A stretch of 32,000 nt of DNA from Diaphorobacter ruginosibacter (GCF_014395975.1 NZ_CP060714.1:1-32000), one strand, 5' to 3'; positions 11,845 to 28,733 are shown, numbered from the stretch's first letter. Notes: generated by a model from the sequence alone, not told the origin. Numbers and translations are program-made.

Positions 11845-11873
11845 GCAGATGCTCCTTGATGTGTCGTTGTCGT

Positions 11874-13178
11874 TCAATGTCCGGCGGCATGTGCCTGGAC
11901 CGCATTGCGCAGGAAGCGCAGCACGCCGGGCCAGGACTGCGCATCGGCACGCGCGTTATCGCGCGGGTTGCCGCCGCTCGTGCTGACCTTGCCCGATACC
12001 GGGTGCGCATAGACATGCTGCGTGGTCGGCACGTAGGGGAACAGGATGGTGTGTCCCGCGTTCTCGTAGTTCAGCCATTGCACGTCGTGGGGGTGCTTCA
12101 CCTCGGCGAGCCTGTCGCGCACGATGCGGGAGTAGGTGTCGGACGGCCAGGAGCCGTCATCCGTTCCCGACAGCAGCATCACCGGCCCCGCGATGTCTTC
12201 CACGTGGATGCGTGCGCGCGCCAGGGCCTCGGGGTCTCCGAGCGCGGTGCGCATGGCGCGGTCATGGCGGTGCGGCGACGGTCCTTCGTCGAACGGCTTC
12301 CAGCTGGCCGTGCGATTGCCTTCCCACAGGTGGGTGAGCGGCTTGCCGTCCAGCAGCCAGGTCGGGCCTTCGCGGCCGATCTTCGGGTCGCTGGCGTTCT
12401 GGCCACTGTGCACGAAGGCGCTTGGCACGTAGGCCACCACGGCGTTCACCTCCCGGGGGAAGGTGGCGCCCAGCAGCAGCACCAGTTCGCCGCCGCGCGA
12501 CTGCCCGCTCACGGCGACGAAGTCGTTGGCCGGCCGCACGTTCCTGCGGATCCATTGCAGGCCCTTCTGGAAATACTCGAGGGGCGTGTTGGAGATGTAG
12601 TCGGACAGACCGGGCGCCTTGAAGTACGCCAGTGCAAATGCGGCGAAGCCGTGCGAGGCATACAGTGCCGCGCGCGGCTCGTTGATGCCACCACCGGAGC
12701 CGTTCAGGATCATCACCGCCGGATGCGGGCCGGCGCCTGCGGGCAGGTACAGCGTGCCGACGAGCCCGTCCTCGCGCACCTCGCGCCGCGTCACACCCCG
12801 GGCGGCCAGGTGCTGCGTGAGCGTTGCTCCGGCATTGGCCGCACCGGCACGCGCGGTGACGTCCGTGACCAGGGCATCGGTCACCGGGCTGTTGAAGTTC
12901 TCACGGCTCGCCGAGCCGACGGGCGACTGCGACCAGATCAGGCCCATGCCGTCCACGCCGGCGTAGCTGCCGCCATCCTGCGGGGCATCTCGCTCGAGAT
13001 CGATAACACCGTTTCCGTCGGCGAGAAAGCGGGCCTGGCTCTGCCAGGCCACGCCGCTGCGCAGCGTTCGCGTATCGATCACGACGGTCTCGCCGGGCCG
13101 CGCGCCCGTCACCGTGATGCGCCGCGGCTCGTCGATCAGCCCTTCGGCGGGCGTCACGGTGACCTGCAGCGTGCCCAT
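11874..13178 (-). CDS. BAAT/acyl-CoA thioesterase-family (dienelactone-hydrolase-like) alpha/beta hydrolase
   Basis: N-terminal beta-sandwich-like part followed by a hydrolase part with nucleophile elbow GQSRGG and a downstream H. Its start overlaps the binding-protein stop (TAATG). Confidence 0.75.
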   Translation of the reverse strand: MGTLQVTVTPAEGLIDEPRRITVTGARPGETVVIDTRTLRSGVAWQSQARFLADGNGVIDLERDAPQDGGSYAGVDGMGLIWSQSPVGSASRENFNSPVTDALVTDVTARAGAANAGATLTQHLAARGVTRREVREDGLVGTLYLPAGAGPHPAVMILNGSGGGINEPRAALYASHGFAAFALAYFKAPGLSDYISNTPLEYFQKGLQWIRRNVRPANDFVAVSGQSRGGELVLLLGATFPREVNAVVAYVPSAFVHSGQNASDPKIGREGPTWLLDGKPLTHLWEGNRTASWKPFDEGPSPHRHDRAMRTALGDPEALARARIHVEDIAGPVMLLSGTDDGSWPSDTYSRIVRDRLAEVKHPHDVQWLNYENAGHTILFPYVPTTQHVYAHPVSGKVSTSGGNPRDNARADAQSWPGVLRFLRNAVQAHAAGH

Positions 13179-14749: not shown

Positions 14750-14814
14750 GACGGGCTCCTTGTATTGAGGAAGGACTTGAATGACTGAATGAATGAAGGA
14801 AGGATGGTTCTGTT

Positions 14815-15869
14815 CTACGCGGAGGCGCCATCGTTGAGATGGCAGGCACTCAGGTGGTGGATGGCGATGCCCTTGAGTTGCGGCGCCTCCACCGTGCAGC
14901 GCGGCATGGCGTGCGGACATCGCGGGTGGAAATGGCAGCCTGACGGTGGATGGAGCGGGCTCGGGATCTCGCCCTGGATGGCGGTGTAGGTCTTGTGGCG
15001 CGCGCTCATGTTGGGCACCTCGGCCAGCAACGCCTGCGTGTAGGGGTGGTTGGGGTGCGAGAACAGTTCATCCACCGGCGCGGACTCGATCACGCGGCCC
15101 AGGTACATCACCACCACGCGGTCGGAGAGATGCTCCACCACGCCGAGGTCGTGGCTGATGAACAGGTAGGTGAGGTTGAGCTGCTCGCGCAGGTCCATGA
15201 ACAGGTTCAGGATCTGCGCCTGGATGGACACGTCGAGCGCCGCGACCGCCTCGTCGCACACCAGCATCGAGGGCTGCACGGCCAGTGCGCGCGCAATGCC
15301 GATGCGCTGGCGCTGGCCGCCGCTGAACTGGTGCGGATAGCGGCTGCGAAGCGCGGGATCCAGGCCCGCGCGCTCAAGCTGTGCGCACACGTAGTCGTCA
15401 AATCCCGCGCGGTCCACGAGTCCATGGATGCGCGCCGCCTCGCCCACGATCTCGTCGACGCGCAGGCGCGGATTCAGGCTCGCATAGGGGTTCTGGAAAA
15501 TCATCTGCACCGACAGGCGCGCGGCATGTTTTTCCTCGGGCGTCATGCCGGCGAAGTGGCGACCGTTGATCAGCACCTCGCCGTCCGATGGCGCGAGCAG
15601 GCCCGAGCCGATGCGCCCGAGCGTCGACTTGCCGCAGCCAGATTCGCCCACGAGGCCGACGACCTCGCCGGGCTTCACGACGAGGTCGACCTTGTCGACA
15701 GCACGCGTGATCGGCGCCGGTTTTTCCAGCCCGATGCCCTGCAGCGCGCGGCCGAGCAGGCCCGGCTTCTGTTCGCCAAAGCGCTTGCTCACGCCCCGGA
15801 GGTCGACTACCGGAGGCGGGGCGGATGTGCCCGGTGTGGCGGGCAAATTGTGGGTATCGTGCCCGAGGC

Positions 15870-15873
<4 letters not shown>
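14815..15873 (-). CDS. ABC transporter ATP-binding protein (DppF/OppF type)
   Basis: Walker [10 protein letters not shown], signature FSGGQRQR, Walker [13 protein letters not shown], and a C-terminal oligopeptide-type extension. ATGA overlap with the upstream ATPase. Confidence 0.9.
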
Positions 15874-16886
<1,013 letters not shown>

Positions 16887-17000
16887 CGGGCGTCAGCTGC
16901 GTTGTGAGGCAACTGGCGAGGCTTTTTGAGGTGGCTGCCGTGGGTTGGTTGTTCCCGGCCGGGACTGCCCCCGGCGGGGCCGTAACTTTGGAGGGTCGTC

Positions 17001-17933
17001 TCATCCCACGTTCCTCGGGTTGAGCACGTCGCGCAGGCGATCGCCCACGAGATTGATCGCGACGATGGTGATGAGCAGTGCAATGCCGGGGTAGAAGCTG
17101 ATCCAGTACTCGCCCGAGAGCATGTACTGGTAGCCGTTGGAGATCAGCAGCCCGAGCGAGGGTTCGGTCACGGGGACGCCCAGGCCCAGGAAGCTCAGCG
17201 TGGCCTCGAGCGTGATGGCGCGGGCGATCTGCAGCGTGCCGATGACGATCAGTGGCGGCAGGCAGTTCGGCAGGATGTGCTTGACCATGATGCGCCAGTT
17301 CGGGATGTCCTGGCATTGCGCCGCCTCGACATATTCCTTGCGGCGCTCGACCAGGGCCTGGCCGCGTGCGGTGCGGGCGTAGTAGGCCCACTCGAGGATC
17401 ACGAGCGTGAGCACGACGTTGCCCACGCCCTTGCCCAGCCATGCGAGGATCATCATCGCGACGAGGATCGACGGGAACGAGAGGATCAGGTCGACGATGC
17501 GCATGATGACGGCATCGGTGCGGCCGCCCGCATAGGCCGCGAGCAGCCCGAGCAGCGTGCCGATGACGCCCGCGATCAGCGCGGAGCCGACGCCGACGAT
17601 GAGACTGATGCGCAGGCCGTAGAGAATGGCCGAGTACAGGTCGCGGCCCTGGCCGTCGGTGCCGAGCACGTAGCGGAAGGTATCGAGTCCGTTCATGGCG
17701 CCCGGATGCAGGCGGGCATCCATGACGTCCAGCTGCATCAGGTCGTAGGGGTTCTGCGGCGTGATCCACGGCGCGAACAGCGCGGCCAGGATCAGCAGCG
17801 CGGCCACGACGAGACCGAACACCGCGAGCCTCGACGCGAAGAAGTCGCGCGCATGCTCGCGCCAGGGCGACTCCTGCCTGGAGGGCCGGGCGGGCGTGGC
17901 GGGCGGTGTGGGCGGGGTGGTGGACTGGCTCAT
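17001..17933 (-). CDS. ABC transporter permease (DppC/OppC type)
   Basis: Multi-TM BPD-transporter permease (TLEATLSFLGLG motif). ATGA overlap with the upstream permease fragment. Confidence 0.9.
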   Translation of the reverse strand: MSQSTTPPTPPATPARPSRQESPWREHARDFFASRLAVFGLVVAALLILAALFAPWITPQNPYDLMQLDVMDARLHPGAMNGLDTFRYVLGTDGQGRDLYSAILYGLRISLIVGVGSALIAGVIGTLLGLLAAYAGGRTDAVIMRIVDLILSFPSILVAMMILAWLGKGVGNVVLTLVILEWAYYARTARGQALVERRKEYVEAAQCQDIPNWRIMVKHILPNCLPPLIVIGTLQIARAITLEATLSFLGLGVPVTEPSLGLLISNGYQYMLSGEYWISFYPGIALLITIVAINLVGDRLRDVLNPRNVG

Positions 17934-18365
17934 GCCGCAGCTTCCAGACGTACGCGTGGATCAAGCACCTTGTAGAGGATGTCCACGATGAGATTGAGCG
18001 TGACGAACAGGCACACCACGACGACGAGGTAGGACACGATCACGGGCCGGTCGAGCGCGTTGATGCTGTCCAGGATCAGCTTGCCCGCGCCGGGCCACGA
18101 GAAGATGCTCTCGGTGACGACGGCGAACGCGATGGTCGATCCCAGCTCGAGGCCGAGCACGGTGACCAGCGGGATCATGGTGTTGCGCAGCACGTGCACG
18201 ACGATCACGCGCAGTGGCGACAGGCCCTTGGCGCGCGCGAACTTCACGAAGTCGAGCGGAAGCACCTCGCGCACGCCGGCACGCGTGAGGCGGATCACGA
18301 GCGATATCTTGAACAGGGACAGGTTGATCGCGGGAAGCAGCATGTGCTTGAGGCCGCTTACCGTG
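17930..18365 (-). pseudogene. 3' fragment of a DppB/OppB-type ABC permease gene, separated from its 5' part by the prophage
   Basis: Encodes ...VSGLKHMLLPAINLSLFKISLVIRLTRAG...ILYKVLDPRVRLEAAA, which is the C-terminal ~145 codons of a DppB-like permease. There is no N-terminal half here. The matching N-terminal half is at 25698..26239. Confidence 0.85.
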
Positions 18366-18378
18366 GTTTTCGAACCAT
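18351..18378. other. attL (host half AGGCCG-cttacc, core GTG, phage half gtttt-CGAACCAT)
   Basis: This is the junction between the permease reading frame and the lower-GC insert. See the att finding for the symmetry of the half-sites. Confidence 0.6.
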
Positions 18379-18384
18379 AGAAAG

Positions 18385-18410
18385 GGACCGGTTTTTCCGG
18401 TCCTTTTTTT
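18385..18410 (+). terminator. Stem-loop plus T7 run at the left phage end
   Basis: GGACCGG-ttttt-CCGGTCC followed by TTTTTTT on the plus strand. The T-run overlaps the recombinase stop codon. In a circularised genome it would lie just downstream of the plus-strand HTH gene. It also follows the minus-strand recombinase gene. Confidence 0.6.
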
Positions 18411-18984
18411 ATTCCAAGCTGCTGTGACCCGGTTTCGTTACCCGGTAGATAGCACGTTTGACGCTCGAAGTATGGACACCGAAATGATGGGCTAGGGCGT
18501 CCATCGTGTAATAACCAGTTCCATACAAACGCACAAGGTGAGCCTCCTTGACAGGCGTCAAAGATCGCTTGCGACCAAACTTCACACCACGGGCCTTCGC
18601 TGCTGCGATACCCGCTGCACTTCGCTCTAGGATCATTTCCCGTTCAAACTCGGCAAATGCGCTCAGCATATGCACAAACATTCGACCGTGCGGCGTATCG
18701 GTTTCGATAGATTGCGTCAATGATCGAAACCCAATTCCCCGTCGTTGCAGATCTTCAAAAACCCGCACGAAATGCGAAACACTGCGCGCTAGACGGTCCA
18801 ATTTATAGACCACCAATACGTCACCTTTTTTTAGGCGCTTCAGCAGCTTGGCAAGTTCCGGTCGTTCCTTTATTGCAGACCGACGTTCTTCAACAATATG
18901 CTCTATTCCCGCTCTCCTGAATGCTTCTACCTGAGCATCTGTGTTTTGTTCAGAGGTAGACACGCGTGCATAACCAATCTCCAT
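18409..18984 (-). CDS. Small serine recombinase (resolvase/invertase family)
   Basis: N-terminal catalytic motif MEIGYARVSTSEQ (nucleophilic Ser), VYKLDRLARS, and a C-terminal HTH (YYTMDALAHHFGVHTSSVKR). 191 aa. Confidence 0.9.
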   Translation of the reverse strand: MEIGYARVSTSEQNTDAQVEAFRRAGIEHIVEERRSAIKERPELAKLLKRLKKGDVLVVYKLDRLARSVSHFVRVFEDLQRRGIGFRSLTQSIETDTPHGRMFVHMLSAFAEFEREMILERSAAGIAAAKARGVKFGRKRSLTPVKEAHLVRLYGTGYYTMDALAHHFGVHTSSVKRAIYRVTKPGHSSLE

Positions 18985-19010
18985 TTATCCTCCCATATAT
19001 GGAGAGCTGA

Positions 19011-19481
19011 CTATCGCTTGAAATCGCGCTGAACACGCAATGCCAATTGGTTCAATTGACGCAGCCCGGGCGGCTTGTTGTCCATGCTGTAGCTGATCCT
19101 CTCATCACGCTTGGGCACTGGCGATACATGATCCTTCAGCTTGCCACCGGCGAGCGTGAATGCCGGGCTTCCATCGGTTATTGCCTCGCAGTGGTCCACC
19201 TCGACCGCCACCGGCCGGCCGCGTCCGGTGTAGCACCGGCATTCATCTGCCATGCGCAAGCATCCATTCGGCACCTGGGCCGCCACTGGAAGCGATACCA
19301 GGATGATGAGCAGCAGCGCAACGGCGCTAGCGCGCAAACAGCCGACGTTTATCAAGCACGAATGAGCGCCACGCATTGCCAGATACCGTGCCTCGCGGAT
19401 GTACGCATCGAATTGCAAGAGCCGCGACGTCTCCGCTTCGCTGACATGGGGCGATGCCCCATACCCCACAGCGCCCCTCAT
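19011..19481 (-). CDS. Hypothetical single-pass membrane/periplasmic protein, possible pXI-like assembly partner
   Basis: ATGA overlap with the Zot-like gene stop. TM segment ASAVALLLIILVSLPVAA followed by a Cys-containing soluble part. An internal start at MRGAHSC is possible. Confidence 0.5.
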   Translation of the reverse strand: MRGAVGYGASPHVSEAETSRLLQFDAYIREARYLAMRGAHSCLINVGCLRASAVALLLIILVSLPVAAQVPNGCLRMADECRCYTGRGRPVAVEVDHCEAITDGSPAFTLAGGKLKDHVSPVPKRDERISYSMDNKPPGLRQLNQLALRVQRDFKR

Positions 19482-20368
19482 GCAGACAGCCTCATGCGCT
19501 GATAGCGTGCCACCAGTTGAAGCGATTGATCTGGTGGCAGCGCTCGAGCCAGCTTAACGACTCGCGCCAACTGAAGGTCAGGCACCAGCGGTGCTAACGG
19601 CTTGACATGTTGCGGCTTGGCCTTGAACAAGATAGCGAGCAGCTTTCTCCACCATGGGACCTCATCGCCCGCCAGGAAGCGCCCTTCAACATGCCATGGC
19701 GAAAGCACTGAATGTGTGCCGTATGGGTAGTCCAAGCGGAACACCTGCCGCGTGTCGTAGCAAGGCTCAATGTCCTGGCCCTTGAACCAAAGTCGATCGC
19801 TCACCAAGTCTTGCGGATTCGTGCCAATCCGGAAAACCGCTTGATGAAAACGCGGCAGATAGCCGAATCGATCGCCAAGCAGCATCCCGATCAACGTGCC
19901 GACGAAAGGAATGCGCACCTTGTCATAGCGCACATGTCGCACGGTCTGTTCAATAAACGAGTCCCGTAGCTGCTTATCGACCTGGGAGACGTCCTGCATG
20001 ATGTAGTAGCAGTCCCAGCCATGCTTACGAGCATGCGCCAGGAAATCAAGGGTTCCGGCCCGCCCCTTATCGTTGAACGTGCGCGCGTTGAACCACGTAC
20101 CCAACTCATCAAGCACCATGGCCCCGTTTTTATCTTCATCGTAGGAATCCGGGTTGCCATGCCCCGCCGCCAGTAAATCGAACTCAGTCGGCTTATCTGG
20201 CACGCGCACATAGGTAACCTTCGATCGCGGACCAAACATGGCTTTCAGATCGATATCCAAGTTTGTGGCCACAGCCCTTTTTCGCTTGAAATAGGTCTCG
20301 CGCATGCGCAAGACAGCGTGCTTGCTTTTGCCAGTCCCTTTCTTTCCGACGAACGCGTAATCGGTCAT
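19478..20368 (-). CDS. Zot/pI-family phage assembly ATPase
   Basis: Walker A FVGKKGTGKSK at the N-terminus and Walker B GAMVLDELG. It sits after the pVI-like gene, as in inoviruses. Start at MTDYAF (CAT at 20366..20368). Confidence 0.85.
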   Translation of the reverse strand: MTDYAFVGKKGTGKSKHAVLRMRETYFKRKRAVATNLDIDLKAMFGPRSKVTYVRVPDKPTEFDLLAAGHGNPDSYDEDKNGAMVLDELGTWFNARTFNDKGRAGTLDFLAHARKHGWDCYYIMQDVSQVDKQLRDSFIEQTVRHVRYDKVRIPFVGTLIGMLLGDRFGYLPRFHQAVFRIGTNPQDLVSDRLWFKGQDIEPCYDTRQVFRLDYPYGTHSVLSPWHVEGRFLAGDEVPWWRKLLAILFKAKPQHVKPLAPLVPDLQLARVVKLARALPPDQSLQLVARYQRMRLSA

Positions 20369-20369
20369 A

Positions 20370-20720
20370 TCAGCGGCTGTAGTTGTGAATGCCAGTCTTC
20401 CTGATCTTGTAGACCTGACACCCAATCCACACGGAGGCCATGCACGTCAAGATCGCACCGGCATTGCCAGGAATGAACATACCCACGCCCATCAGGAAAT
20501 AGGACCAAAGCGCCCCATTACCACCGCCACCACCACCGCCCTGAACCATGCCAAGCAACGTATTCAAACAGACAGAAACTGTCGTGACGAAGGTCGTTAG
20601 GATGGTGATCCACACAAGGAAGGACGCCAAGCTCAGCGCAGCTTTGAATCCCAGCCAGCGTGAAAAGAAGCCCGTGAGAAAGGTCGCAATCGACCCTATG
20701 AAAGTCGCAAGAATCGGCAT
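20370..20720 (-). CDS. pVI-like minor virion protein (hydrophobic, 116 aa)
   Basis: Called from position between the pIII-like and pI-like genes, from size, and from multiple hydrophobic segments. It contains an internal G7 tract. Confidence 0.6.
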   Translation of the reverse strand: MPILATFIGSIATFLTGFFSRWLGFKAALSLASFLVWITILTTFVTTVSVCLNTLLGMVQGGGGGGGNGALWSYFLMGVGMFIPGNAGAILTCMASVWIGCQVYKIRKTGIHNYSR

Positions 20721-22085
20721 TTAAACGGCCTCCCTGATCCAGCCCAAACAAAGCCATATAGCCGTCAGCGCCCACACATAAGCCATGATCGCGCGACCAG
20801 TATCGACAACCTCACATTGCTTTTCATAGGCCACACCACCAGGGAGAGGTATGGGCGTGCAAGACGCCAACGGAGGCGCTGAAAAGAGCACATTCATGGA
20901 ATCGAAAATTCCACCACCAGATTCCTTCATCTGATCGCGATTAGCCTCAATATCGGCCTTCCACTTATCCAGACCTTTGCCACCATCACCCTTGTACTCC
21001 TTGGGCGTACCTGTCTCATCGATCTTGCAAGGCGGTTGCCCCGGCGCACCGCACGCAGCTTGCTCTTTACCCTCACCCGGCTTGTTCGTCGTGCCGTCTG
21101 GCTTGGTTCCCCCACCAGCCGCGCCCCCAGGGCCACCAGCACTACCGCCTGTGCCAGTACTAGGCGTGCGCCCTGCACCGTCAGTACCAGACCCCTCCCC
21201 CTCACTCGGCTTATTGCCCGCGGGAGGGTTGCCCTTATCTGAGCCGTTGTTGTTCGGCTTGTTTGGATCGGTAGATGGCACCGGCTTTTGCGCGTTACCA
21301 AAGCACCCCTTGACACCATTGACCTCACCGACATAACCCGGGCACGGTGGGTCTTTCGAGTCATCAGGCGTGAGCAAATCAGGCGCTACCTCACTGTCAG
21401 AAGTGCTGCAGCTTTCCCCGCTGTAATGACCTCTGAAATCAGTACTGACCCGGTACATGCCATTGTTACCGGGCGTTTGCGATACCCACCCTTTGCAGTC
21501 CGCACACGGCTCATTGGCGTCAATGTCTTGCTTACAACCACTGGTGCCACCCGGCGTGCTAGGACTGCAAACACTGAACTGACCGCCCGAAGGAAGCTGG
21601 TTAGTTACAACCCAGGACTCGGAAGGGTCACCAACGCTGGGCGTACGCTTCCATCCCGATGTGATATTCACAATGTCGAACGTACCGGCCTTGCCGCCAC
21701 ACTCCGCAGACTGGTTGGATTTACACTGCCCGCCCTGCTCTGAATAGCCAGACTTGCACACACACTCGCCGCCAACGCTTTCCGAATTTTCAGGGCAGAC
21801 TTGGGCGGTGCTGCATGGGACATTCATCAAATTGATATCCCGGCCATCCTTGTTCTGAGCCATGATTTGACAGAAGCCTGAAGCCGAAATGCCGTAGAAG
21901 CGGTAAGCAACACTCTCCCCGGACGGTGGCTCATTTGCTGCGGCGTCTGCGCATGCAGACTCTTTCGACATACCAGTACCGTAACGGCACACATAGCCTT
22001 GGCCTGGAGGCACCGAGGCTATGGCTGAATGACCAAGGACCACCAGCATGACGGCCAGCAGCCAACGCCAATAAACAATTCGCAT
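20721..22085 (-). CDS. pIII-like adsorption/minor coat protein
   Basis: Signal peptide (LLAVMLVVLGHSAIA), a Cys-rich N-terminal region, a long G/P/T/S-rich linker (GSGTDGAGRTPSTGTGGSAGGPGGAAGGGTKPDG) and a C-terminal anchor (AIMAYVWALTAIWLCLGWI). GAGGAG SD. Confidence 0.7.
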   Translation of the reverse strand: MRIVYWRWLLAVMLVVLGHSAIASVPPGQGYVCRYGTGMSKESACADAAANEPPSGESVAYRFYGISASGFCQIMAQNKDGRDINLMNVPCSTAQVCPENSESVGGECVCKSGYSEQGGQCKSNQSAECGGKAGTFDIVNITSGWKRTPSVGDPSESWVVTNQLPSGGQFSVCSPSTPGGTSGCKQDIDANEPCADCKGWVSQTPGNNGMYRVSTDFRGHYSGESCSTSDSEVAPDLLTPDDSKDPPCPGYVGEVNGVKGCFGNAQKPVPSTDPNKPNNNGSDKGNPPAGNKPSEGEGSGTDGAGRTPSTGTGGSAGGPGGAAGGGTKPDGTTNKPGEGKEQAACGAPGQPPCKIDETGTPKEYKGDGGKGLDKWKADIEANRDQMKESGGGIFDSMNVLFSAPPLASCTPIPLPGGVAYEKQCEVVDTGRAIMAYVWALTAIWLCLGWIREAV

Positions 22086-22109
22086 AACGACTCCTCAAAC
22101 TGCCTTACA

Positions 22110-22130
22110 CATGCCCCGAAAGGAGGCATG
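22110..22130 (-). terminator. Hairpin between the major coat and pIII-like genes (possible attenuating terminator)
   Basis: Minus strand CATGCC-T-CC-tttc-GG-GGCATG. There is no strong T-run. The position is analogous to the terminator after gene VIII in Ff phages. Confidence 0.35.
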
Positions 22131-22142
22131 GCGTAAAGCCGC

Positions 22143-22382
22143 TTAGGCAGCGGACTTGCCGCGCTTGATCCACTTGATGCCAATCATGATGCCGGTCGCA
22201 ACGACAGCCAGAGCAAAAAGCGGAGTGGCGTAGCTGCTGGCCTCGCCCTTGAGCGCCTCGAGAGAAGCGGCAGCACTCGGAATCGTTTCCTGCGCCATGA
22301 CGCCAGCAGACAGAGCCAGAGCACCAACGGCGGCAGCAGCCTTAGAACCGTACTTGACCATCACATTACGAGTTGTGTTCAT
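22143..22382 (-). CDS. pVIII-like major coat protein precursor (79 aa)
   Basis: Leader ending ALSAGVMA, then an acidic N-terminus (QETIPSAAASLEALKGE), a hydrophobic core (LFALAVVATGIMIGI) and a basic tail (KWIKRGK). GGAGG SD. The longer track ORF runs through a hairpin and is rejected. Confidence 0.75.
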   Translation of the reverse strand: MNTTRNVMVKYGSKAAAAVGALALSAGVMAQETIPSAAASLEALKGEASSYATPLFALAVVATGIMIGIKWIKRGKSAA

Positions 22383-22423
22383 AGAACCTCCGAAAAGTTG
22401 AAAAAAAGGTGCAACTGCACCGG

Positions 22424-22480
22424 CAAGCGTTGCGCCCCTGCGGGGCACGCTACGCATACCCCGCAGGGGCGCAACGCTTG
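22424..22480. repeat. Perfect 22-bp inverted repeat with 13-nt loop
   Basis: CAAGCGTTGCGCCCCTGCGGGG (22424..22445) and its exact reverse complement (22459..22480). The repeat lies in the non-coding gap upstream of the coat gene. Confidence 0.9.
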
Positions 22481-22497
22481 ACGCTAAAGTCGCTTCA

Positions 22498-22602
22498 CTA
22501 CGCGGCGCGAAAGGCCATCCGCACCATTCGCACCTTGAAGCCAATGACGTAACCAACGGCCCATGCCGCCATGAAATAGACAAGACTCGCGGCCATCAGC
22601 AT
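22498..22602 (-). CDS. Tiny hydrophobic protein, pVII/pIX-like (34 aa; not in the ORF track)
   Basis: My translation is MLMAASLVYFMAAWAVGYVIGFKVRMVRMAFRAA. It has a hydrophobic N-part and a basic C-terminus, and lies just upstream of the coat gene, as gVII/gIX do in Ff. Confidence 0.4.
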   Translation of the reverse strand: MLMAASLVYFMAAWAVGYVIGFKVRMVRMAFRAA

Positions 22603-22760
22603 CCCGCCTTCAAACAGCCTTCAGGCTGGGCAGGCAGTACCGACAGCACCGCAGGTGCCGGGATCGGCACGGACCAGGGGTTTTTCCAACCCACATAGAT
22701 CCTGAACACCCCATAACACACAGCTAGAAAAATCACCCACACGGCCATTCGTTGAGCCAT
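22596..22760 (-). CDS. Alternative small membrane ORF (MAQRMAVWVIFLAVCYGVFRIY...)
   Basis: One TM segment. Its stop overlaps the tiny ORF start region (TGATG). It overlaps ORF 22621..22866 in another frame, so both cannot be confirmed. Confidence 0.25.
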   Translation of the reverse strand: MAQRMAVWVIFLAVCYGVFRIYVGWKNPWSVPIPAPAVLSVLPAQPEGCLKAGC

Positions 22761-22866
22761 AAGACACCCCCACTGAGACACCGACCGCAAGGCCAGCTAG
22801 AAAAGAACAAAAAACGATGGTTGCCAGCAGGGCCAAAGCACCCGCATAGCGTCGAAAAAAGGTCAT
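22621..22866 (-). CDS. Hypothetical small membrane protein (81 aa)
   Basis: ATGA overlap with the upstream 34-aa ORF. The N-terminal TM segment (ALALLATIVFCSFLAGLAVGV) is convincing; the C-terminal half is less protein-like. Confidence 0.4.
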   Translation of the reverse strand: MTFFRRYAGALALLATIVFCSFLAGLAVGVSVGVSYGSTNGRVGDFSSCVLWGVQDLCGLEKPLVRADPGTCGAVGTACPA

Positions 22867-22967
22867 CCAGCAGCGCCCCCACCGGCCAGATAGCCCAGGC
22901 CAAACATGACGGCGACAAGGCCGCTCGTCAGGATTTCAGAGAAGTACTGCAACTGGTCGGGCGTCAT
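22863..22967 (-). CDS. Tiny hydrophobic protein (34 aa; not in the ORF track)
   Basis: My translation is MTPDQLQYFSEILTSGLVAVMFGLGYLAGGGAAG. It has ATGA overlaps with the Rep stop (22964) and with the next ORF start (22866). Confidence 0.45.
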   Translation of the reverse strand: MTPDQLQYFSEILTSGLVAVMFGLGYLAGGGAAG

Positions 22968-23944
22968 TGCGCATCCTTGATTTCAGGGAGCCAGGAAAAC
23001 GGACCGCATGGTTCGATCCTTCGCGGGCCTCGCCGCACGCGGATAAAGCTATGAAAACCGCCGCCCGTTGGTGCGAAGTCAGAGAGCAAAAGCTCTCCTG
23101 TCTCAGCATTGACGTAACCGCCTCCCGGCGCAGGTCTAAAGCGGTCTTGCACCGAAGCATTAGCCTGCACATACGAAGGCCAAAGTACCCAACGGCGGCA
23201 AGCACGGCCAGTTTCAGACAGGCCTCCACAGCCATGAATTCGAGCGCCATGCGGAAATCCTCCAATCGTTTTTTGGCCCACCTTGCTGACGTACTTCATC
23301 AGGTACGCGACCGGGCAATAGGCCTTGTCCCTTCGGGTCATGCCATGCGGCCACATAGGAGGCTCCCAGAGCTTCAAACCGGCCCGGTCTTTACGTGACC
23401 ATGGGCGATCCCCTTTCGGCGGCGTAAGGCCCCCTTCCAGCCACACAACGATGTGGTAATGAATGACGCCTCGGTCCTGCAATTCAGCAACCCATGCATA
23501 GCGCACTGTCTTGCTGCCGGTCTTGGCGTAGTGCCACTTGCGCAGTGCGTCGAGGTATCGGCTGATGTGCTCAGGCTTCCACGCGCGGTTATCGCCGCGG
23601 TAGGTCAGCGTCTGCATCCACATCTGCTGCTTTAAGCTGCCCGCGTTGTGCAGGGCCTTGGAAGCCACGCCCAGCGATTTGCGCAGGCGCGTGATGCGGC
23701 TTTGGATTGGATCGATGGTGATGACGTTATCGGTCCATGCCAAAGCCACCTGATCTTTGCCGGTGTAGGTCTCACCGCCAACGATCAGAGACGATCCACT
23801 TGCAGTCCTGCAAGTTGTTGATACTGAGACAAGCCCGGCAGCGCTGCGCGCTGCCTGCTCAGCTGCACGCGCCTGCTGACGTGCGAACAGCAATGCACCC
23901 ATGCTCTGCATGCGTGCCTCGTTCTTGGCCTGAAGCGCGCTCAT
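22964..23944 (-). CDS. HUH-type rolling-circle replication initiator (gII-like function)
   Basis: HUH motif VIHYHIVVW and Tyr motif AYLMKYVSK. Start at MSALQAK, with an ATGA overlap on the upstream ORF. Confidence 0.85.
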   Translation of the reverse strand: MSALQAKNEARMQSMGALLFARQQARAAEQAARSAAGLVSVSTTCRTASGSSLIVGGETYTGKDQVALAWTDNVITIDPIQSRITRLRKSLGVASKALHNAGSLKQQMWMQTLTYRGDNRAWKPEHISRYLDALRKWHYAKTGSKTVRYAWVAELQDRGVIHYHIVVWLEGGLTPPKGDRPWSRKDRAGLKLWEPPMWPHGMTRRDKAYCPVAYLMKYVSKVGQKTIGGFPHGARIHGCGGLSETGRACRRWVLWPSYVQANASVQDRFRPAPGGGYVNAETGELLLSDFAPTGGGFHSFIRVRRGPRRIEPCGPFSWLPEIKDAQ

Positions 23945-24462
23945 GCCAACTCCAACGGACGGCACTGATGTGCCAGGTCAACCAGCCATTGCGCAAAGGC
24001 CGCAGGAGTGCGTTCACGCTCCGCACGACCCATACGTTCGACCGTGCAGGTCGCAGCGACCTCACCAGGTTCGATAGCTGGCACCGGGCCGACGATGTAG
24101 AGACACGTCTTTTTCTGGGCACGATGACCGAACCAGCTCTGCATTACCGGCACCAAAACGCCGCCATGCTGATCGCGAACACCGAACGTGCCGCAGCCTG
24201 ATACGCCCCACAACTTGGAACTGAATGGATGTTCCAGAACACCGCCAAAGCGGCGCACCATAGCCATAGACCACAGCGCCAGCTCGCGCTCACCGTCCCG
24301 CGGCTTTGCAAAGTGCGAGAGCTGGCCCCACGCTCTACACGGTGGATGGAAGATGCCAGGTACACCACCCGGCCAGGTCAAGGCATCGCGATCAATGTCG
24401 TAGCAGTCACAGCCGAGCGCCGCATAGTGGTTGTCCGCACGGACGAAAAGAGCAGCGACCAT
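23941..24462 (-). CDS. Hypothetical protein (173 aa) translationally coupled to Rep
   Basis: Clean ORF with overlapping start and stop codons on both sides. The motifs FHPPCRAWG, LEHP and GHRAQKKTCLYIVG weakly recall C5-methyltransferase motifs IV, VI and VIII. This is unverified. Confidence 0.6.
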   Translation of the reverse strand: MVAALFVRADNHYAALGCDCYDIDRDALTWPGGVPGIFHPPCRAWGQLSHFAKPRDGERELALWSMAMVRRFGGVLEHPFSSKLWGVSGCGTFGVRDQHGGVLVPVMQSWFGHRAQKKTCLYIVGPVPAIEPGEVAATCTVERMGRAERERTPAAFAQWLVDLAHQCRPLELA

Positions 24463-24656
24463 CAGAGGCCCTCCCCGCTCACAGGCATGCCGCCTCGCGT
24501 GTACGTGAAATCGACGGTGGTCTCTTCGCCTTCCATGCGGAAATGCGCAGACACACCGTCGATCAATGAGAGCTCTTGTTGACGCTGCTCCATGAACAGC
24601 GCCAGGAGCGCGTCATGGGCAGCAGCGAGCCGCGCATCGTGCATGGCTTGAGCCAT
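24462..24656 (-). CDS. Hypothetical protein (64 aa)
   Basis: Tightly packed between the gV-like gene and ORF173 (TGATG overlap downstream). I recognise no motif. Confidence 0.5.
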   Translation of the reverse strand: MAQAMHDARLAAAHDALLALFMEQRQQELSLIDGVSAHFRMEGEETTVDFTYTRGGMPVSGEGL

Positions 24657-24658
24657 GG

Positions 24659-24976
24659 TCAGCCCTTGACGTCAGCAGCTGCGGGGGCGGACTTGATCGC
24701 GCGCAAACGCGGCGACATGGCAATGTCACCGTTGCGGCTCACATAGACCGATTCAGGCGCGAGGGTGTACTCGCCGATTGGGTAGTAGAGCGCCGCACCT
24801 TCGGAGTTGGTGGGCAGGATGATTTCGACCTTCGTGGGGTACGGCTCAGGGTTGCCGTTCTTGTCCACGAGGTGGAAATAGACGTTCTGGAAATTGAGGC
24901 TGTAGGGCTTGCCAGATTGCTTGGAGGTGCCGCTTTGGTTGCGGACGTCGGTCGACTTTACCGATACCTTAATCAT
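24659..24976 (-). CDS. Gene-V-like ssDNA-binding protein
   Basis: MIKVSVKS...SGTSKQSGKPYSLNFQNVY...YPIGEYTL...SPRLRAIK aligns by eye with Ff gVp (MIKVEIKP...SGVSRQGKPYSLNEQLCY...YAPGLYTV...DRLRLV). GGAGA SD. Start CAT at 24974..24976. Confidence 0.85.
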   Translation of the reverse strand: MIKVSVKSTDVRNQSGTSKQSGKPYSLNFQNVYFHLVDKNGNPEPYPTKVEIILPTNSEGAALYYPIGEYTLAPESVYVSRNGDIAMSPRLRAIKSAPAAADVKG

Positions 24977-25066
24977 GATTTCTCCTAGACTGTGCGACGT
25001 TGCACACGTTGACCCTGCACGCAAGGCCAACGTTTGAAACGTCAGGCCAATGCAGAGGGAGAAGAA
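24977..25066. promoter_or_regulatory. Divergent control region of the prophage (candidate operators and/or origin)
   Basis: Near-palindrome TGTGCgACGTtGCACA (24991..25006). ACGTTG at 24997 and 25006. Palindrome ACGTTT-g-AAACGT (25030..25042) flanked by direct AGGCCAA repeats (25024..25030 and 25044..25050). Confidence 0.45.
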
Positions 25067-25345
25067 ATGGATTTAAGCCAGTACTCCAAAGTGATGGAGC
25101 AGATAGAGCAAATGTGGATGCGCGCGCTGATCGTCGATCTGTGCATTAGCGTGATCGCGTTCATCGTGGTTTGTTGGGTTGCGTACTCGATCACGCGCGC
25201 CGCCGTTCGTGATGGCATACGCGATGCGCTTCCGCGCTTTCCAGTCGCAAACAACAAAGGAGCGCCACCAGATGGATTCAGGTGGGAGCTTGTAAAAGAC
25301 GACGCACCCAAAGCACAGATGCCAGATATGCGCGCTGAAAAGTAA
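25067..25345 (+). CDS. Hypothetical single-pass membrane protein (92 aa), divergent from the phage structural genes
   Basis: GAGGGAG SD before the ATG at 25067. TM segment LIVDLCISVIAFIVVCWVAYSI. Confidence 0.55.
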   Translation: MDLSQYSKVMEQIEQMWMRALIVDLCISVIAFIVVCWVAYSITRAAVRDGIRDALPRFPVANNKGAPPDGFRWELVKDDAPKAQMPDMRAEK

Positions 25346-25361
25346 CTGATTTTCATAAGAA

Positions 25362-25378
25362 ATTCTTAGCCTAAGAAT
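25362..25378. promoter_or_regulatory. Palindrome upstream of the phage HTH gene
   Basis: ATTCTTAG-c-CTAAGAAT is a perfect palindrome. A related CTTA-tcc-TAAG element lies at 25417..25427, next to the SD. Confidence 0.4.
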
Positions 25379-25437
25379 CTCTTTGTTTATTCGCCAGCGA
25401 AAAATGCTAAAACCCACTTATCCTAAGAGGTACTCAG

Positions 25438-25701
25438 ATGCAAAAAACCATGGAACTTTGGGCAAAAGCGCAAGAAATTAAGAGCCCTGCGCAATGGGCG
25501 CGCGAGTTCAACGTAACCCCGGAGGCGTTTTACGTAGCAAAACGACAAGGACGGCTAAGCCCAATCCTGGCGGGAAACGTTGCTATTGAATTAGGAGAGA
25601 ACCCAGAGCATTGGATGGCGATTGCCGCTCTGGAAGCAGAAAAAGAAAGCCCGCTCGTAGCAAGACTACAGCGGGCTGTCAACTCATGGCGGAGGCTGTG
25701 A
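25438..25701 (+). CDS. Small HTH DNA-binding protein (candidate phage repressor/regulator, 87 aa)
   Basis: AAGAGG SD. HTH-like segment SPAQWAREFNVTPEAFYVAKRQGRLS. Opposite orientation to the morphogenesis genes. The stop codon TGA (25699..25701) straddles the attR junction. Confidence 0.65.
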   Translation: MQKTMELWAKAQEIKSPAQWAREFNVTPEAFYVAKRQGRLSPILAGNVAIELGENPEHWMAIAALEAEKESPLVARLQRAVNSWRRL

Positions 25702-26239
25702 GGAACGACCATTGCGCACCGAGCACCTGCACCGTCTCGCCGCGGCCGCTGGCCGGCAGCCAGCCCAGGGAGACGCTGAAGGCCATGATAAGCATGAGGC
25801 CCACCCAGAACGTGGGCAGCGAGAAGCCCACGATGCTGCCGGCCATGATGGACTTGGCGAACCAGCTGTCAGGGTAGAGGCCCGCGTAGAGCCCGAGCGG
25901 CACGCCGAGCAGCGTCGCCAGGATCAGCGCCGCGATGGCCAGCTCCAGCGTGGCGGGCAGGCGCTGCAGGATCAGCTCGATCGCGGGCACGTTGTAGACG
26001 AAGCTCGTGCCGAGGTTGCCGTGCAGCGCGCCGTTCACGAACGCCAGGTACTGGCGCCACAGGGGCTGGTCCAGTCCGAGTTCGGCGATGATGCGCGCGC
26101 GTTCGATCTGGTCCACGTCCTGGCCGATCAGGATGTCCACCGGGTTGCCGATGGCATGCAGGCCGACGAAGACGATCACCGTCATCAGCAGCACCACGAG
26201 GACCGCCTGGGCGAGGCGTCGCAGCAGCCAGCCGGTCAT
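25679..26239 (-). pseudogene. 5' fragment of the DppB/OppB-type ABC permease gene, truncated by the prophage
   Basis: MTGWLLRRLAQAVLVVLLMTVIVFVGLH...GWLPASGRGETVQVLGAQWSFLT, then 5 phage-encoded codons (ASAMS) and a stop. The start overlaps the oxidoreductase stop (ATGA). Confidence 0.85.
25686..25713. other. attR (phage half ATGGCG-gaggct, core GTG, host half aggaa-CGACCATT)
   Basis: This is the junction between the lower-GC insert and the permease 5' fragment. Confidence 0.6.
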
Positions 26240-27717
26240 GATGATGCATCCTGCGGCAGTCCGTCCTGGGACGGCGGCTCGGCGGGCGTCCATTCGTCGC
26301 CGAACACCTCGGGCTCCTCGAAGGTCTGCAGGTTGTCGTAGTGCCACTGCACGTCTTCTGCGTACAGCGTGCCCGCAAGGCCCTGGGCCATGCGCTGCGC
26401 TCCCACGCTCACGGCGGGAATGTCGCCCGAGATCGTGCCCTGCGTGAGCGCTGCGGGGTAGGAGAACACATGCACGCGCGAGAGGCCCGGGCATTCACCG
26501 GGCGTCTTCTCCTGCAGCTCGAACACCGGGCCGAGGTCCGGGGAGTCGGCGAGTTCCTGGTCGTCCTCGCCCTCTGGATGGGTGAAGCGGTCCTTCCATG
26601 CACGCACGTGGGGTGCGAGCCTGGCGAACTCGGGGCGCTGGCTCCAGTCGATGCGAAAGCCTGTGGAGAAGATCAGGAAGTCGAAGCGGAACACGCCCTT
26701 GTTGGTGAGCGCGCGGATCTCGCCGTCCACCCATTGCAGGTCCTCGATCCGGGTCCCCAGGTTGAAGCGCGCGTTGTCATGGCGCGATACGCGCAGCGTG
26801 CTGCCGCGCGGCGGAGGCACCTGTTGCACGTTGATGTAGTGGCGGATCTTCCATTTCCAGGCGTCGGGCAGCGTCAGGTGGCCATGCGTGAGGCCGGGGC
26901 TGCCCGCGCCCTTGCCCTTGTTGACGCGCGGGATGTCGTCGCGGCGGATCAGCAGGTCGACGCTGGCCGCGCCGCGCTCGAGGGCCGTGGCAGCGCTGTC
27001 CATGGCGGATGCGCCCGCACCCACCACGCCCACGCGCCGGCCCTTGAGCATGGCGTAGTCCATCTCGTCGGACGAGTGCGCCCACACCTCGCGCGGCAGC
27101 TTGTCGGCCACGGGCGGTACCCAGGCGCCGCCCAGGCCGTCGCGGCCGGTGGCGAGCACCACATGGCGCGCGAGTACCGTGCGCGGTCCGGCAGGCGTCT
27201 GCATGTCGAGCTGCACCACGCCGTCAGCGCCGCGCGGCTGCACGGACAGCAGCCGGTGTTCGTTGTGGATCTCGAGATCGAGCGCCTTGCGGTACCAGCG
27301 CAGGTAGTCCATCCATTGCAGGCGCGGAATCTTGTCGAGCGCTTCCCACGCCTCGGTGCCGAACTGCGATTCGAACCAGGCGCGGAAGGTGAGTGCGGGC
27401 TGTCCGAGCGCGGGGCCGGTGAGCGTCTTGGGCGAGCGCAGCGTCTCCATGCGCGCGGTGGTCGCCCAGGGGCCTTCGAAGCCGGTGGGCGAGCGATCGA
27501 AGATGGGTGCCTGGACGCCCAGGAACTTGAGCGCGGCGGACGTGGCCATGCCGCCCATGCCACCGCCGATGATGGCGACGGGAAGCACGGGCTGGCCGTC
27601 CACTTCGGAGTCGGGCAGCCAGTTCCTGGCGGGCAGGTCGAGCCAGTCGAGGTCCTGGCGCAGGCGCGCCTCGAGTTGTTCGAGGCCTTGCGGCGGTGCC
27701 GCAACGGTGGGGGTCAT
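26236..27717 (-). CDS. FAD/NAD(P)-binding oxidoreductase (flavin monooxygenase-like)
   Basis: Two dinucleotide-binding motifs (VAIIGGGMGGMATS and VGVVGAGASAMDSA). 493 aa. Confidence 0.8.
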   Translation of the reverse strand: MTPTVAAPPQGLEQLEARLRQDLDWLDLPARNWLPDSEVDGQPVLPVAIIGGGMGGMATSAALKFLGVQAPIFDRSPTGFEGPWATTARMETLRSPKTLTGPALGQPALTFRAWFESQFGTEAWEALDKIPRLQWMDYLRWYRKALDLEIHNEHRLLSVQPRGADGVVQLDMQTPAGPRTVLARHVVLATGRDGLGGAWVPPVADKLPREVWAHSSDEMDYAMLKGRRVGVVGAGASAMDSAATALERGAASVDLLIRRDDIPRVNKGKGAGSPGLTHGHLTLPDAWKWKIRHYINVQQVPPPRGSTLRVSRHDNARFNLGTRIEDLQWVDGEIRALTNKGVFRFDFLIFSTGFRIDWSQRPEFARLAPHVRAWKDRFTHPEGEDDQELADSPDLGPVFELQEKTPGECPGLSRVHVFSYPAALTQGTISGDIPAVSVGAQRMAQGLAGTLYAEDVQWHYDNLQTFEEPEVFGDEWTPAEPPSQDGLPQDASS

Positions 27718-28733
27718 TGAAAAATCTCTTCTTCTTGTTCGGTGGGGAAATGAGGGGATGCGGCACGCTGCGGTACGGCGTGCTGCATGAGCAGTTCTGT
27801 GTGCCTGGCGGCGTCGTGGCGCACGAAGCCGGGCACCAGGGCCTGCGCAGCATCCGCAAGCGCGTTGACCAGGCCTTCCATGGCGGGCGTCATGGGCAGG
27901 GTCTGCGGGGAGACGACGCCAAACAGGAAGGGGATGGAGGTGTCGATCGCGCGCACGGCGACTCCGGCGAGCGGCAGCCCCAGCGCGGTCACGGGTTCGA
28001 GCACGGAAACGCCCAGTCCGGCGCGTACGGCGGCCATGGCGTTGACGGATGAATTGGTCTTGATGAACTGGCGCGTGCGCTCTTCGTGGGTCGCCGCGGC
28101 AAAGGCTTCGGAGAGCCGGCCCATCAGGCGGTACGGATTGGCCAGCGTGATCATGCGGCGCTGCGCAAGTTCGGCGAGCGGCACCACGTCAAGCTGCGCG
28201 AGCGGGTCGTCTTCGGGCAGCACCGCCACGCAGGGCGCCTCGGCGATCCAGTGCACCTGCAGCCCTCGGTGCTCCAGCGGCAGGCTGGTCACGCCCAACT
28301 GCGCCGTGCCGGCCAGCACGCCATGGGCCACGCGCTCGGGCGAGGCGCTGCGCAGGTGGATCTGGGCTGCGGCGGCCTTGTCGCCGCGCTGGTCCAGCAG
28401 GGCGAGCGCGGCGGGGATCAGGCCCGCGGCCAGCGCCGACGTGGCCAGCACGTGCAGCGGGCGTGACACGCCATGCTCGATCTCACGGGCACGATGGCGG
28501 ATCTGCTGCAGGCTCTGCAGCGCATGTTCCACATCCTCGAACAACAGGAAGGCCTGCTCGGTGGGCGACACGCGCGGGCCGTTGCGGCTGAACAGCGGAT
28601 AGCCGATCGCGCTCTCCAGCTCCTGCACCAGGCGCGTCACGGCCGGCTGCGAACGGCCCAGCACCCGGCCGGCAGCGGTGACGCTGCCTGTGGACATGAC
28701 GGCCGCAAAGGCTTCCAGTTGACGAAGTTCCAT
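27714..28733 (-). CDS. LysR-family transcriptional regulator
   Basis: N-terminal HTH MELRQLEAFAAVMSTGSVTAAGRVLGRSQPAVTRLVQELE. Its stop overlaps the start of the downstream oxidoreductase (ATGA). Confidence 0.9.
   Translation of the reverse strand: MELRQLEAFAAVMSTGSVTAAGRVLGRSQPAVTRLVQELESAIGYPLFSRNGPRVSPTEQAFLLFEDVEHALQSLQQIRHRAREIEHGVSRPLHVLATSALAAGLIPAALALLDQRGDKAAAAQIHLRSASPERVAHGVLAGTAQLGVTSLPLEHRGLQVHWIAEAPCVAVLPEDDPLAQLDVVPLAELAQRRMITLANPYRLMGRLSEAFAAATHEERTRQFIKTNSSVNAMAAVRAGLGVSVLEPVTALGLPLAGVAVRAIDTSIPFLFGVVSPQTLPMTPAMEGLVNALADAAQALVPGFVRHDAARHTELLMQHAVPQRAASPHFPTEQEEEIFQ

Follow-up and report, generated by a model that had tools for sequence, protein, structure and literature searches.

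A filamentous prophage inside a PepT-family permease gene of Diaphorobacter ruginosibacter, probably inserted at a secondary site by its own small serine recombinase

We analysed a stretch of 32,000 nucleotides (nt) from Diaphorobacter ruginosibacter (NZ_CP060714.1:1-32000; hereafter the window), in which an operon for an ATP-binding cassette (ABC) importer of the PepT family is interrupted, within its first permease gene, by a 7.3-kb prophage that ends in a serine recombinase gene. A first-pass annotation of this DNA had proposed that the prophage splits the DppB-type permease of a ten-gene operon, that excision would restore the gene without a scar, and that the phage could therefore act as a reversible switch on the operon. 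As shown in Table 1, the operon and most of the phage genes, the recombinase gene being the last of them, are read from the minus strand (the operon strand), and the same three bases stand at both ends of the insert. These three bases are referred to below as the core.

Table 1. Features of the interrupted permease locus, with coordinates counted from the first base of the window.
Feature	Coordinates	Strand	Basis or remark
LysR regulator	28733..27714	-	same order in empty-site loci
Flavin-dependent oxidoreductase	27717..26236	-	same order in empty-site loci
Permease N-terminal part, PepT-family ABC ("DppB-type"), including core	25698..26239	-	codons 1-180 and first two bases of codon 181
Core copy 1, junction of N-terminal part and phage	25698..25700	GTG on plus strand, CAC on operon strand	blastn breakpoints, five empty sites
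Prophage, unique part	18366..25697	-	7,332 nt; G+C drop, phage genes, 99.9% identical phage-only Logan contigs L068-L072
DNA-binding regulator-like gene, 87 residues, spans attP	25438..25701	+	phrog_31301 3.1e-29
Terminator-like hairpin, AGCCCGCTGTAG...CTACGAGCGGGCT then TTCTTTTT	25645..25680	-	scan; fold -23.1 kcal/mol, z = -2.8
Gene V-like single-stranded DNA-binding protein	24659..25030	-	PF02303 2e-11; phrog_1199
Rolling-circle replication initiator	22964..23965	-	PF23343 REP_ORF2-G2P 1.7e-26; phrog_2969
Major coat protein, 79 residues as called on L068	22143..22382	-	phrog_1646, phrog_6548
pIII-like minor coat/adsorption protein, 454 residues	20721..22085	-	phrog_4352 and position in module
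pVI-like minor coat protein	20370..20720	-	phrog_17485, phrog_1944
Zot/pI morphogenesis ATPase	19478..20425	-	PF05707 6.8e-20; phrog_1675 ("protein I of M13") 8.8e-83
Recombinase, 191 residues, catalytic domain and C-terminal helix-turn-helix	18409..18984	-	PF00239, phrog_125
Terminator-like hairpin, GGACCGG-AAAAA-CCGGTCC then CTTTCTATGG	18385..18403	-	scan; fold -15.1 kcal/mol, z = -2.6
Core copy 2, junction of phage and C-terminal part	18363..18365	GTG/CAC	blastn breakpoints, five empty sites
Permease C-terminal part	17930..18362	-	last base of codon 181 to codon 324 and stop
Genes 3' of the insertion	10676..17933	-	C permease, two ATPases, SBP_bac_5, BAAT-type hydrolase, TIGR04029 CMD, TIGR01926 CMD

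Read on the minus strand from 26239, the permease gene runs ...GGTCGTTCCTCAC and then passes into foreign sequence, AGCCTCCGCCATGAGTTGA; at the other end the foreign sequence closes with ...GGTTCGAAAACCAC, after which GGTAAGCGGCCTCAAGCACATG... continues in the frame of the remaining permease. As integrated, the open reading frame (ORF) that starts at 26239 encodes 186 residues and ends with ...WSFLTASAMS and a stop codon. Joining the two parts through a single copy of the core gave 975 nt, which is 324 codons and a stop, and the junction reads ...GAQWSFLTVSGLKHMLLPAINL.... The position and strand of both halves, the in-frame join and the other structural details given in the first-pass annotation were all confirmed. 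Aligned with its homologues, the rebuilt 324-residue permease matched P0001 at 100% identity over 100% of its length and matched P0002 and P0003 at 99%, and 102 of the 120 best permease homologues are exactly 324 residues long. Around the junction the homologues read S(F/W)LT-xx-GL(K/R)H(M/L)(L/I)LP, which agrees with the spacing given in the first-pass annotation (FLTxxGLxHLLLP), and the NCBIfam models of DppB, NikB and OppB-type permeases span the junction as one continuous alignment. The protein scored 250 bits against the DppB equivalog PRK10914 (cut-off 590) and 268 bits against its best model, Opp2B (cut-off 350). Because it falls under every equivalog cut-off, "DppB-type" is valid only as a family label, and the gene encodes a generic PepT-family B permease.

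Uninterrupted genes for P0001 and P0003 were found in related genomes at five loci (L001-L005), where the LysR, flavin oxidoreductase, permease and DppC genes are kept as neighbours. Alignment of the window flanks with these empty sites by blastn gave 97-99% identity and breakpoints at 25698 and 18365, and at all five sites the flanks overlap by exactly 3 nt with zero indel. These results indicated that the two fragments are not separate natural genes and that the junction introduces no indel. G+C was 0.65-0.70 in the flanks versus 0.53-0.61 across the insert. The reconstructed product and the empty sites together bear out the proposal that conservative excision would rebuild the permease exactly.

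On the plus strand all five empty sites read GCCGCTCACCGTGAGGAACGACC, and the bacterial attachment site (attB) reconstructed in the first-pass annotation reads GCCGCTTACC...; the sole difference is a synonymous one, GTA in the lysogen and GTG in the empty sites, in the Val codon beside the core and thus in host DNA. At plus-strand position 18359 the lysogen has GGTAAGC and the five empty sites have GGTGAGC, 3-4 nt from the crossover; this single-base difference is probably a lineage single-nucleotide polymorphism (SNP). The attB junction k-mer as reconstructed is GGTCGTTCCTCACGGTAAGCGGCCTCAAGCA. An exact search with the 23-mer attB proposed earlier found no match in the empty-site loci because of this synonymous SNP beside the core, the alignment being otherwise identical, so that the 23-mer was correct in position and one base off the real attB in its letters.

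Its genes show that the insert is a filamentous phage with a complete genome rather than a tailed prophage. The phage genome measures 7,335 bp when the core is counted once, its modules follow the order replication, structure and assembly, and the recombinase gene is the last on the operon strand. Both features looked for in an inovirus were present, namely a Zot/pI ATPase and a small genome that encodes a replication initiator, a gene V-type protein and small coat proteins. The insert also contains several small ORFs and two small divergent genes, one of which encodes the 87-residue DNA-binding protein. Gene content, rather than particles, would place the phage in the Inoviridae sensu lato/Tubulavirales. 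A megablast search found no nucleotide match for the phage among the 50,697 deposited phage genomes of INPHARED. That the insert is a prophage was therefore borne out by a full inovirus gene set; what had been overlooked is its type, filamentous and with a recombinase of the phiRSM Int kind.

The earlier identification of a serine recombinase as the last phage gene beside the junction was likewise supported. The protein matched PF00239 (2.4e-44) and the DNA invertase family phrog_125 (8.5e-64), its closest solved structure is the Gin invertase (4m6f, 1.3e-42) with the catalytic YxRVST motif aligned, and its best match in sequenced phages is a "putative resolvase" of Ralstonia phage Rs551 (53% identity). 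The gene stops 44 nt upstream of the downstream junction on the operon strand. Its domains are a resolvase catalytic domain and a C-terminal helix-turn-helix (HTH) and nothing further; at 191 residues with catalytic domain and HTH only, a large serine integrase of the phiC31, Bxb1 or SprA kind (450-700 residues, zinc-ribbon/coiled-coil) was ruled out. Matches to XisF and Ccr covered the catalytic domain alone and lay far under the cut-offs. These alignments identify the recombinase as the phage integrase, of the small invertase/resolvase-type serine class. The Int protein of phiRSM carries out both integration and excision, and its phage attachment site (attP) is 13 nt of a transfer RNA (tRNA)-Ser gene (Askora and Yamada 2015, PMC4471427); by analogy, two-way catalysis by the recombinase described here is plausible.

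Comparison of the window with Logan contigs of the same strain revealed indels that all lie in A/T homopolymers and range from -3 to +3 between runs, at 18826-18832 (A7/T7, inside the recombinase gene), 18404-18410, 22407, 22814, 22860, 23274 and 25447. On Logan contigs the homopolymer run in the recombinase gene gives rise to split products (53-65 residues plus 134 residues) or to a product of 190 residues, one codon shorter. A broken or phase-variable integrase was dismissed, since the frameshifts all fall in A/T homopolymers whose length varies in both directions between runs. The frameshifts are most likely sequencing errors, with slippage in the integrase gene left as a lesser possibility.

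Joining the two phage ends through the core gave an attP that reads CTATGGTTCGAAAAC-CAC-AGCCTCCGCCATGAG on the operon strand (CATGGCGGAGGCTGTGGTTTTCGAACC on the other; junction k-mer GGTTCGAAAACCACAGCCTCCGCCATGAGTT). This attP resembles the T-arm and acceptor end of a tRNA. Fourteen nucleotides of it, comprising the core and its right side (CACAGCCTCCGCCA), are the exact end of tRNA-Ser(UGA) genes, and 111 of the 132 metagenome matches to TTCGAANNNCACAGCCTCCGCCA read ...GAGTTCGAATCTCACAGCCTCCGCCA, that is, tRNA-Ser(UGA) ends. The blocks TGGCGGAG and TTTTCGAAC are common to this attP and to the annotated attP region of Rs551, AATGGCGGAGAGGGTCCTTTTCGAAC. The regulator ORF spans attP, so that the state of integration alters the C-terminus of its product: the 87-residue ORF has a TGA stop that is finished by host base 25701, and in the circular phage the frame would continue to 130 residues. 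On integration the host bases CTCAC give the regulator its TGA stop, as the T-stem of the tRNA would. In relatives the regulator has 87 residues when integrated versus 114-134 on circular contigs.

Related prophages occupy the tRNA gene itself. Two forms were found of a relative whose recombinase is 78% identical: a circle (L074, L075) with attP TTATGGTTCGAAACCCACAGCCCCCGCCA, and a prophage (L073) at the 3' end of tRNA-Ser(UGA), where the sequence reads ...GAGTTCGAATCTCACAGCCCCCGCCA and then continues into phage. Two prophages with 66-68% identical recombinases, one of them in Acidovorax sp. ACV02, also lie at tRNA-Ser(UGA); their far junction is TTGGTTCGAAAACCAC-AGTCTCCGCCA, with the same P arm as here. 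Across these tRNA-Ser(UGA) relatives (66-78% in the recombinase) the P arm is nearly identical, TGGTTCGAAAACCAC. The spacer between nadK and hrcA is the site of a further, more distant group (Alicycliphilus, IMG/VR contigs), whose recombinases are 60% identical. In this group (L006-L009) the recombinase gene stops ∼10-20 nt from the start of hrcA.

The permease site, GCAATGGTCGTTCCT-CAC-GGTAAGCGGCCTCAA, has only the CAC in common with attP, and the crossover dinucleotide must therefore be CA or AC there. In ungapped comparison its arms resemble attP or the tRNA site to an ordinary degree (top 16% of CAC sites), and its dyad symmetry is weak. The idea of a permease site with good half-sites, imitating attP or its tRNA counterpart, was dropped, because about one CAC site in six has arms this similar. 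No tRNA was found within the window, and this copy lies inside the permease ORF and not at a tRNA-Ser 3' end. The permease is not the dedicated target of this phage family, as attP mimics the 3' end of tRNA-Ser and the relatives lie elsewhere, at tRNA-Ser(UGA) or between nadK and hrcA; nor does a site that is occupied in one strain and shares 3 nt with attP have the marks of a dedicated attB.

Logan contigs of one run series, SRR284098xx, were the only place where the 186-residue product and the phage were found, and at least seven of them carry the truncated gene. Homopolymer indels aside, they match the window at 100% identity, so that the occupied site is known from one strain; the intact permease gene is present in other projects and in a 97% identical metagenome-assembled genome. 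Exact-sequence look-up returned two GenBank accessions, both from D. ruginosibacter and in mirrored order, for each phage protein tested (recombinase, QNN57347 and QNN56255; pIII-like protein, QNN57351 and QNN56251; 87-residue protein, QNN57357 and QNN56245), and DppC is QNN57346. The paired accessions indicate a second, protein-identical and inverted prophage copy ∼1,100 protein accessions away, which accounts for the breaks in short-read contigs at either end of the prophage. Contigs of host DNA extend 28 nt into the phage before they stop, and phage contigs begin with CTCAC... and finish with ...CCACG; given k-1 contig overlaps, the second copy would also be flanked by CT before the core and G after it. 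The two 7.3-kb inverted repeats could mediate a chromosomal inversion. A candidate lead to the second copy, P0251, turned out to lie on a mosaic element that is unrelated and encodes a tyrosine integrase (L308).

Two identical copies in one genome, at whose ends short-read graphs break, raise the concern that a repeat occurring twice was misplaced inside the permease gene during assembly. We consider such an artefact highly improbable: contig L300 runs from host DNA into 7.3 kb of phage, contigs L299 and L301-L304 cross the upstream junction by 28 nt, the ends of the phage contigs bear the host-side CT and G, and the reading frame is restored exactly at the junction, which lies on a trinucleotide common to both sides. 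Misassembly was rejected on the ground that independent Logan contigs cross the upstream junction.

No excised form of this prophage was detected in the collections searched. The attP 24-mer had no match in IMG/VR, a phage-end 23-mer had none in the JGI metagenomes and IMG/VR, the 130-residue circular form of the regulator ORF was not found in the protein database, and the 137-residue C-terminal permease fragment is not on record. Public assemblies and proteins thus yielded neither attB nor attP forms from this lysogen, although assemblies say little about rare excision events.

The insertion is also predicted to affect transcription of the operon. One terminator-like hairpin lies 18 nt inside the upstream end of the prophage and faces transcription from the operon promoter; the other lies between the recombinase stop and the downstream junction, and in the circular phage both would stand in series 3' of the recombinase gene. 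From their position and predicted folds, the upstream hairpin should stop LysR-side transcription and the downstream one should limit phage read-through into the C-terminal fragment and dppC. The first-pass annotation had described the downstream genes as cut off from the LysR-side promoter and placed 3' of the recombinase gene, which stands; transcription of these genes from the phage would occur only as leaky read-through, the hairpins arguing against anything strong. The truncated permease itself comprises sequence for four of its transmembrane segments, and the importer is accordingly expected to be inactive.

Pfam and NCBIfam searches confirmed the operon content listed earlier, ten genes including two of the CMD/AhpD type. 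The LysR and oxidoreductase genes overlap by 4 nt at their ends, and the oxidoreductase gene overlaps the start of the permease gene likewise. Both ATPases carry the oligopeptide C-terminal domain, the hydrolase is of the BAAT/acyl-CoA-thioesterase type, the TIGR04029 CMD-domain protein scored 107 bits against a cut-off of 100.75 bits, and the last gene encodes a TIGR01926 peroxidase-related CMD protein. Several gene ends in the operon overlap; gaps of ∼132 nt before the first ATPase gene and ∼65 nt before the binding-protein gene were seen in the gene calls of one empty-site locus (L004).

We propose that the phage integrated inside codon 181 (Thr) of the PepT-family permease gene by means of its own 191-residue serine recombinase. 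Crossover would have taken place within the 3-bp overlap, CAC on the operon strand, so that nothing was lost or duplicated beyond the core. The permease site would be a secondary site (pseudo-attB) used once, in this strain, by a phage whose usual target is probably tRNA-Ser(UGA). The permease would be cut to 186 residues and the importer inactivated, and the eight co-directional downstream genes, now 7.3 kb from the LysR-side promoter with hairpins at both ends of the insert, would be expected to suffer polar loss. We put the probability of such a secondary-site insertion with polar inactivation at about 0.72. The locus anatomy, the phage type and recombinase class, the rebuilt permease with its empty sites, the tRNA-like attP and the sites used by relatives are shown here; an insertion made by the recombinase, an off-target site, a polar effect and the possibility of excision are what we infer from them. 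A one-off secondary site is favored over an evolved switch because of the tRNA-like attP, the tRNA sites of the relatives, the single occupied strain, the second copy and the lack of an excised form. Since serine recombination is conservative and phiRSM Int catalyses the reaction either way, reversal is mechanistically plausible; regulated switching is speculative, and nothing found here supports it.

Several observations weigh against this proposal. A left-arm motif, ATGGT(T)CG, present at only 5 of 1,830 CAC sites, occurs in attP and, shifted by 1 nt, in the permease site as well; it was noticed post hoc and is therefore only a lead. The CT|CAC...CAC|G flanks of the second copy, deduced from contig ends, and the same hexamer at the permease site hint at a sequence preference and maybe at a recurrent non-tRNA target. 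With regard to polarity, the hairpin 3' of the recombinase gene has a weak U-tract, and internal promoters in the 132-nt and 65-nt gaps may keep the downstream genes on.

The shared flanks suggest the possibility of an integrase with relaxed or dual specificity, which in addition to tRNA-Ser(UGA) would use sites offering little beyond CTCACG, would insert in genes in a switch-like manner, and whose attP-spanning regulator would sense the state of integration. This reading, drawn from the CT|CAC...CAC|G that flanks both copies, is unlikely in our judgement; if true, a chronic, non-lytic phage would enter and leave coding genes and provide a phase-variation-like switch for a transport and catabolic operon. 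The same hexamer, apparently at the flanks of both copies, also speaks for active lysogeny as the first-pass annotation had suggested it, in which condition-dependent excision restores the permease and the operon and is followed by later reintegration. The recombinase ORF and both junctions are intact, excision would be scarless, a phiRSM-type Int acts in both directions (PMC4471427), and the second copy would hold the cell lysogenic after excision and so permit reintegration. We nevertheless hold active lysogeny to be distinctly unlikely, in view of an attP that mimics tRNA-Ser, relatives at tRNA-Ser(UGA) or in the nadK-hrcA spacer, a single occupied strain, assemblies and a protein database in which no attB or attP form was found, and no sign of co-adaptation between phage and operon.

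With only 3 nt common to attP and attB and with ordinary arm similarity, the permease site might be so poor that excision is no longer efficient, the permease a pseudogene in the making, and any phage produced derived from the other copy or from replication without excision. That no excised form was seen in public data and that the truncated gene is identical in at least seven SRR284098xx Logan contigs would fit such a locked-in state. We regard it as doubtful: serine recombinases require just a matching central dinucleotide and recognisable half-sites, the left and right attachment sites (attL and attR) retain all four half-sites, the recombinase is intact in the window, and absence from assemblies is weak evidence on rare events. 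We retain insertion at a secondary site, with reversal still plausible, as the preferred interpretation.

Among known systems the nearest are the filamentous phages phiRSM1, phiRSM3 and Rs551 of Ralstonia solanacearum, which integrate by their own resolvase/invertase-type recombinase. As in the phage described here, attP adjoins int, a small regulator gene lies on the opposite side, and attP mimics the tRNA-Ser 3' end with the TGGCGGAG and TTTTCGAAC blocks in common (PMC4471427). The arrangement differs in that int of Rs551 is antisense with attP upstream, whereas here int runs in the direction of the structural genes and its stop precedes attP, and in that the regulator ORF here spans attP. 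Of the features of a phiRSM-type unit, the small recombinase and a tRNA-Ser-like attP next to int were found; location in tRNA-Ser was not, this copy lying in a protein-coding gene. Membership of Habenivirus (RSM1, RSM3, Rs551) was ruled out, as tblastn of the 12 phage ORFs against Rs551 matched the recombinase alone.

The Comamonadaceae inoviruses at tRNA-Ser(UGA) (Acidovorax sp. ACV02 and metagenomic contigs; L073, L161 and L162) resemble the present phage in the recombinase (66-78% identity), in the regulator (57-64%), in a P arm of the form TGGTTCGAAA(A/C)CCAC, and in a layout that puts the regulator at one end and the recombinase at the other or close to it. They differ in their Rep_trans, DUF2523 and TspB-like modules and in occupying a tRNA gene whose 3' end they regenerate, and some have cargo between int and attR. 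Only the recombinase and the 87-residue regulator are shared with these relatives, the replication and structural modules being unrelated, which indicates that a regulator-attP-integrase cassette moves between inovirus backbones. In the Acidovorax tRNA-Ser prophage (L162 10845-12695, and L163) the recombinase gene is separated from attR by genes for an OLD-family nuclease (AAA_15 plus OLD-like TOPRIM) and a T5orf172 protein, which resemble defence cargo carried by an inovirus-like element.

A scan of GTDB genomes with the recombinase returned mostly distant resolvases, with no close relatives among the matches listed. The closest full-length homologue, P0122 (81% identity), is encoded on circular-looking replicons of ∼3.3 kb (L076-L080) that carry a Rep_1 initiator without phage structural genes; the integrase cassette thus occurs on plasmid-like elements too.

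In active lysogeny a prophage interrupts an ORF that precise excision rebuilds: Listeria phi10403S in comK, Bacillus subtilis SPbeta in spsM with SprA, and Staphylococcus aureus phiSa3 in hlb (PMC5499854, PMC7397523, PMC6597384). SPbeta, like the present phage, uses a serine recombinase. Those phages are tailed, their dedicated attB inside the gene is conserved in many strains, and regulated excision has been demonstrated for them, whereas here a filamentous phage with a small recombinase sits in an incidental-looking target, and the likeness is in geometry only. Compared with the Gin and Hin invertases and the gamma-delta/Tn3 resolvases, the recombinase is similar in size, in two-domain architecture and in its aligned catalytic motif; those enzymes act on two sites of one DNA molecule, inverting or resolving the DNA between them, and need accessory sites or an enhancer, and the present one serves, on our interpretation, to integrate a phage circle into the chromosome.

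Integration of filamentous phages is usually described at dif sites or tRNA genes. The case described here extends the phiRSM-type integrating inoviruses to a new host genus and has its phage within a gene, at a non-canonical site; it provides a clean, scarless gene disruption by a filamentous phage with a very small serine recombinase. The insertion itself reveals no new regulatory principle. Because 14 nt are identical in the tRNA integrations, those cannot locate the crossover; the CAC-only identity at the permease places the crossover dinucleotide of the entire phiRSM-like integrase family at the junction of T-stem and acceptor stem in the tRNA-like attP. Small serine integrases would thus be able to use sites of low identity, and their regulator-attP-integrase unit appears to travel as a cassette among unrelated Comamonadaceae inovirus backbones. 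For the sequenced strain, loss of one peptide/opine-type uptake and catabolic operon is predicted.

Two further observations concern the window outside the prophage. The binding protein, the CMD protein and the peroxidase-related protein of the operon (10676-14920, minus strand) match TIGR04028, TIGR04029 and TIGR04030, only TIGR04029 above its cut-off, and the names of these models (KPN_01854, Avi_7170, Avi_7169) and their numbering resemble a set built from one conserved neighbourhood. Going by these model matches, the set would suggest a specific, uncharacterised transporter substrate. Near the start of the window, a gene for a HipA-type toxin kinase (2989-4389, plus strand; HipA_C 1.1e-49, Couple_hipA) lies in a patch of lower G+C (∼0.60), directly after a methionine synthase gene that extends past the window start.

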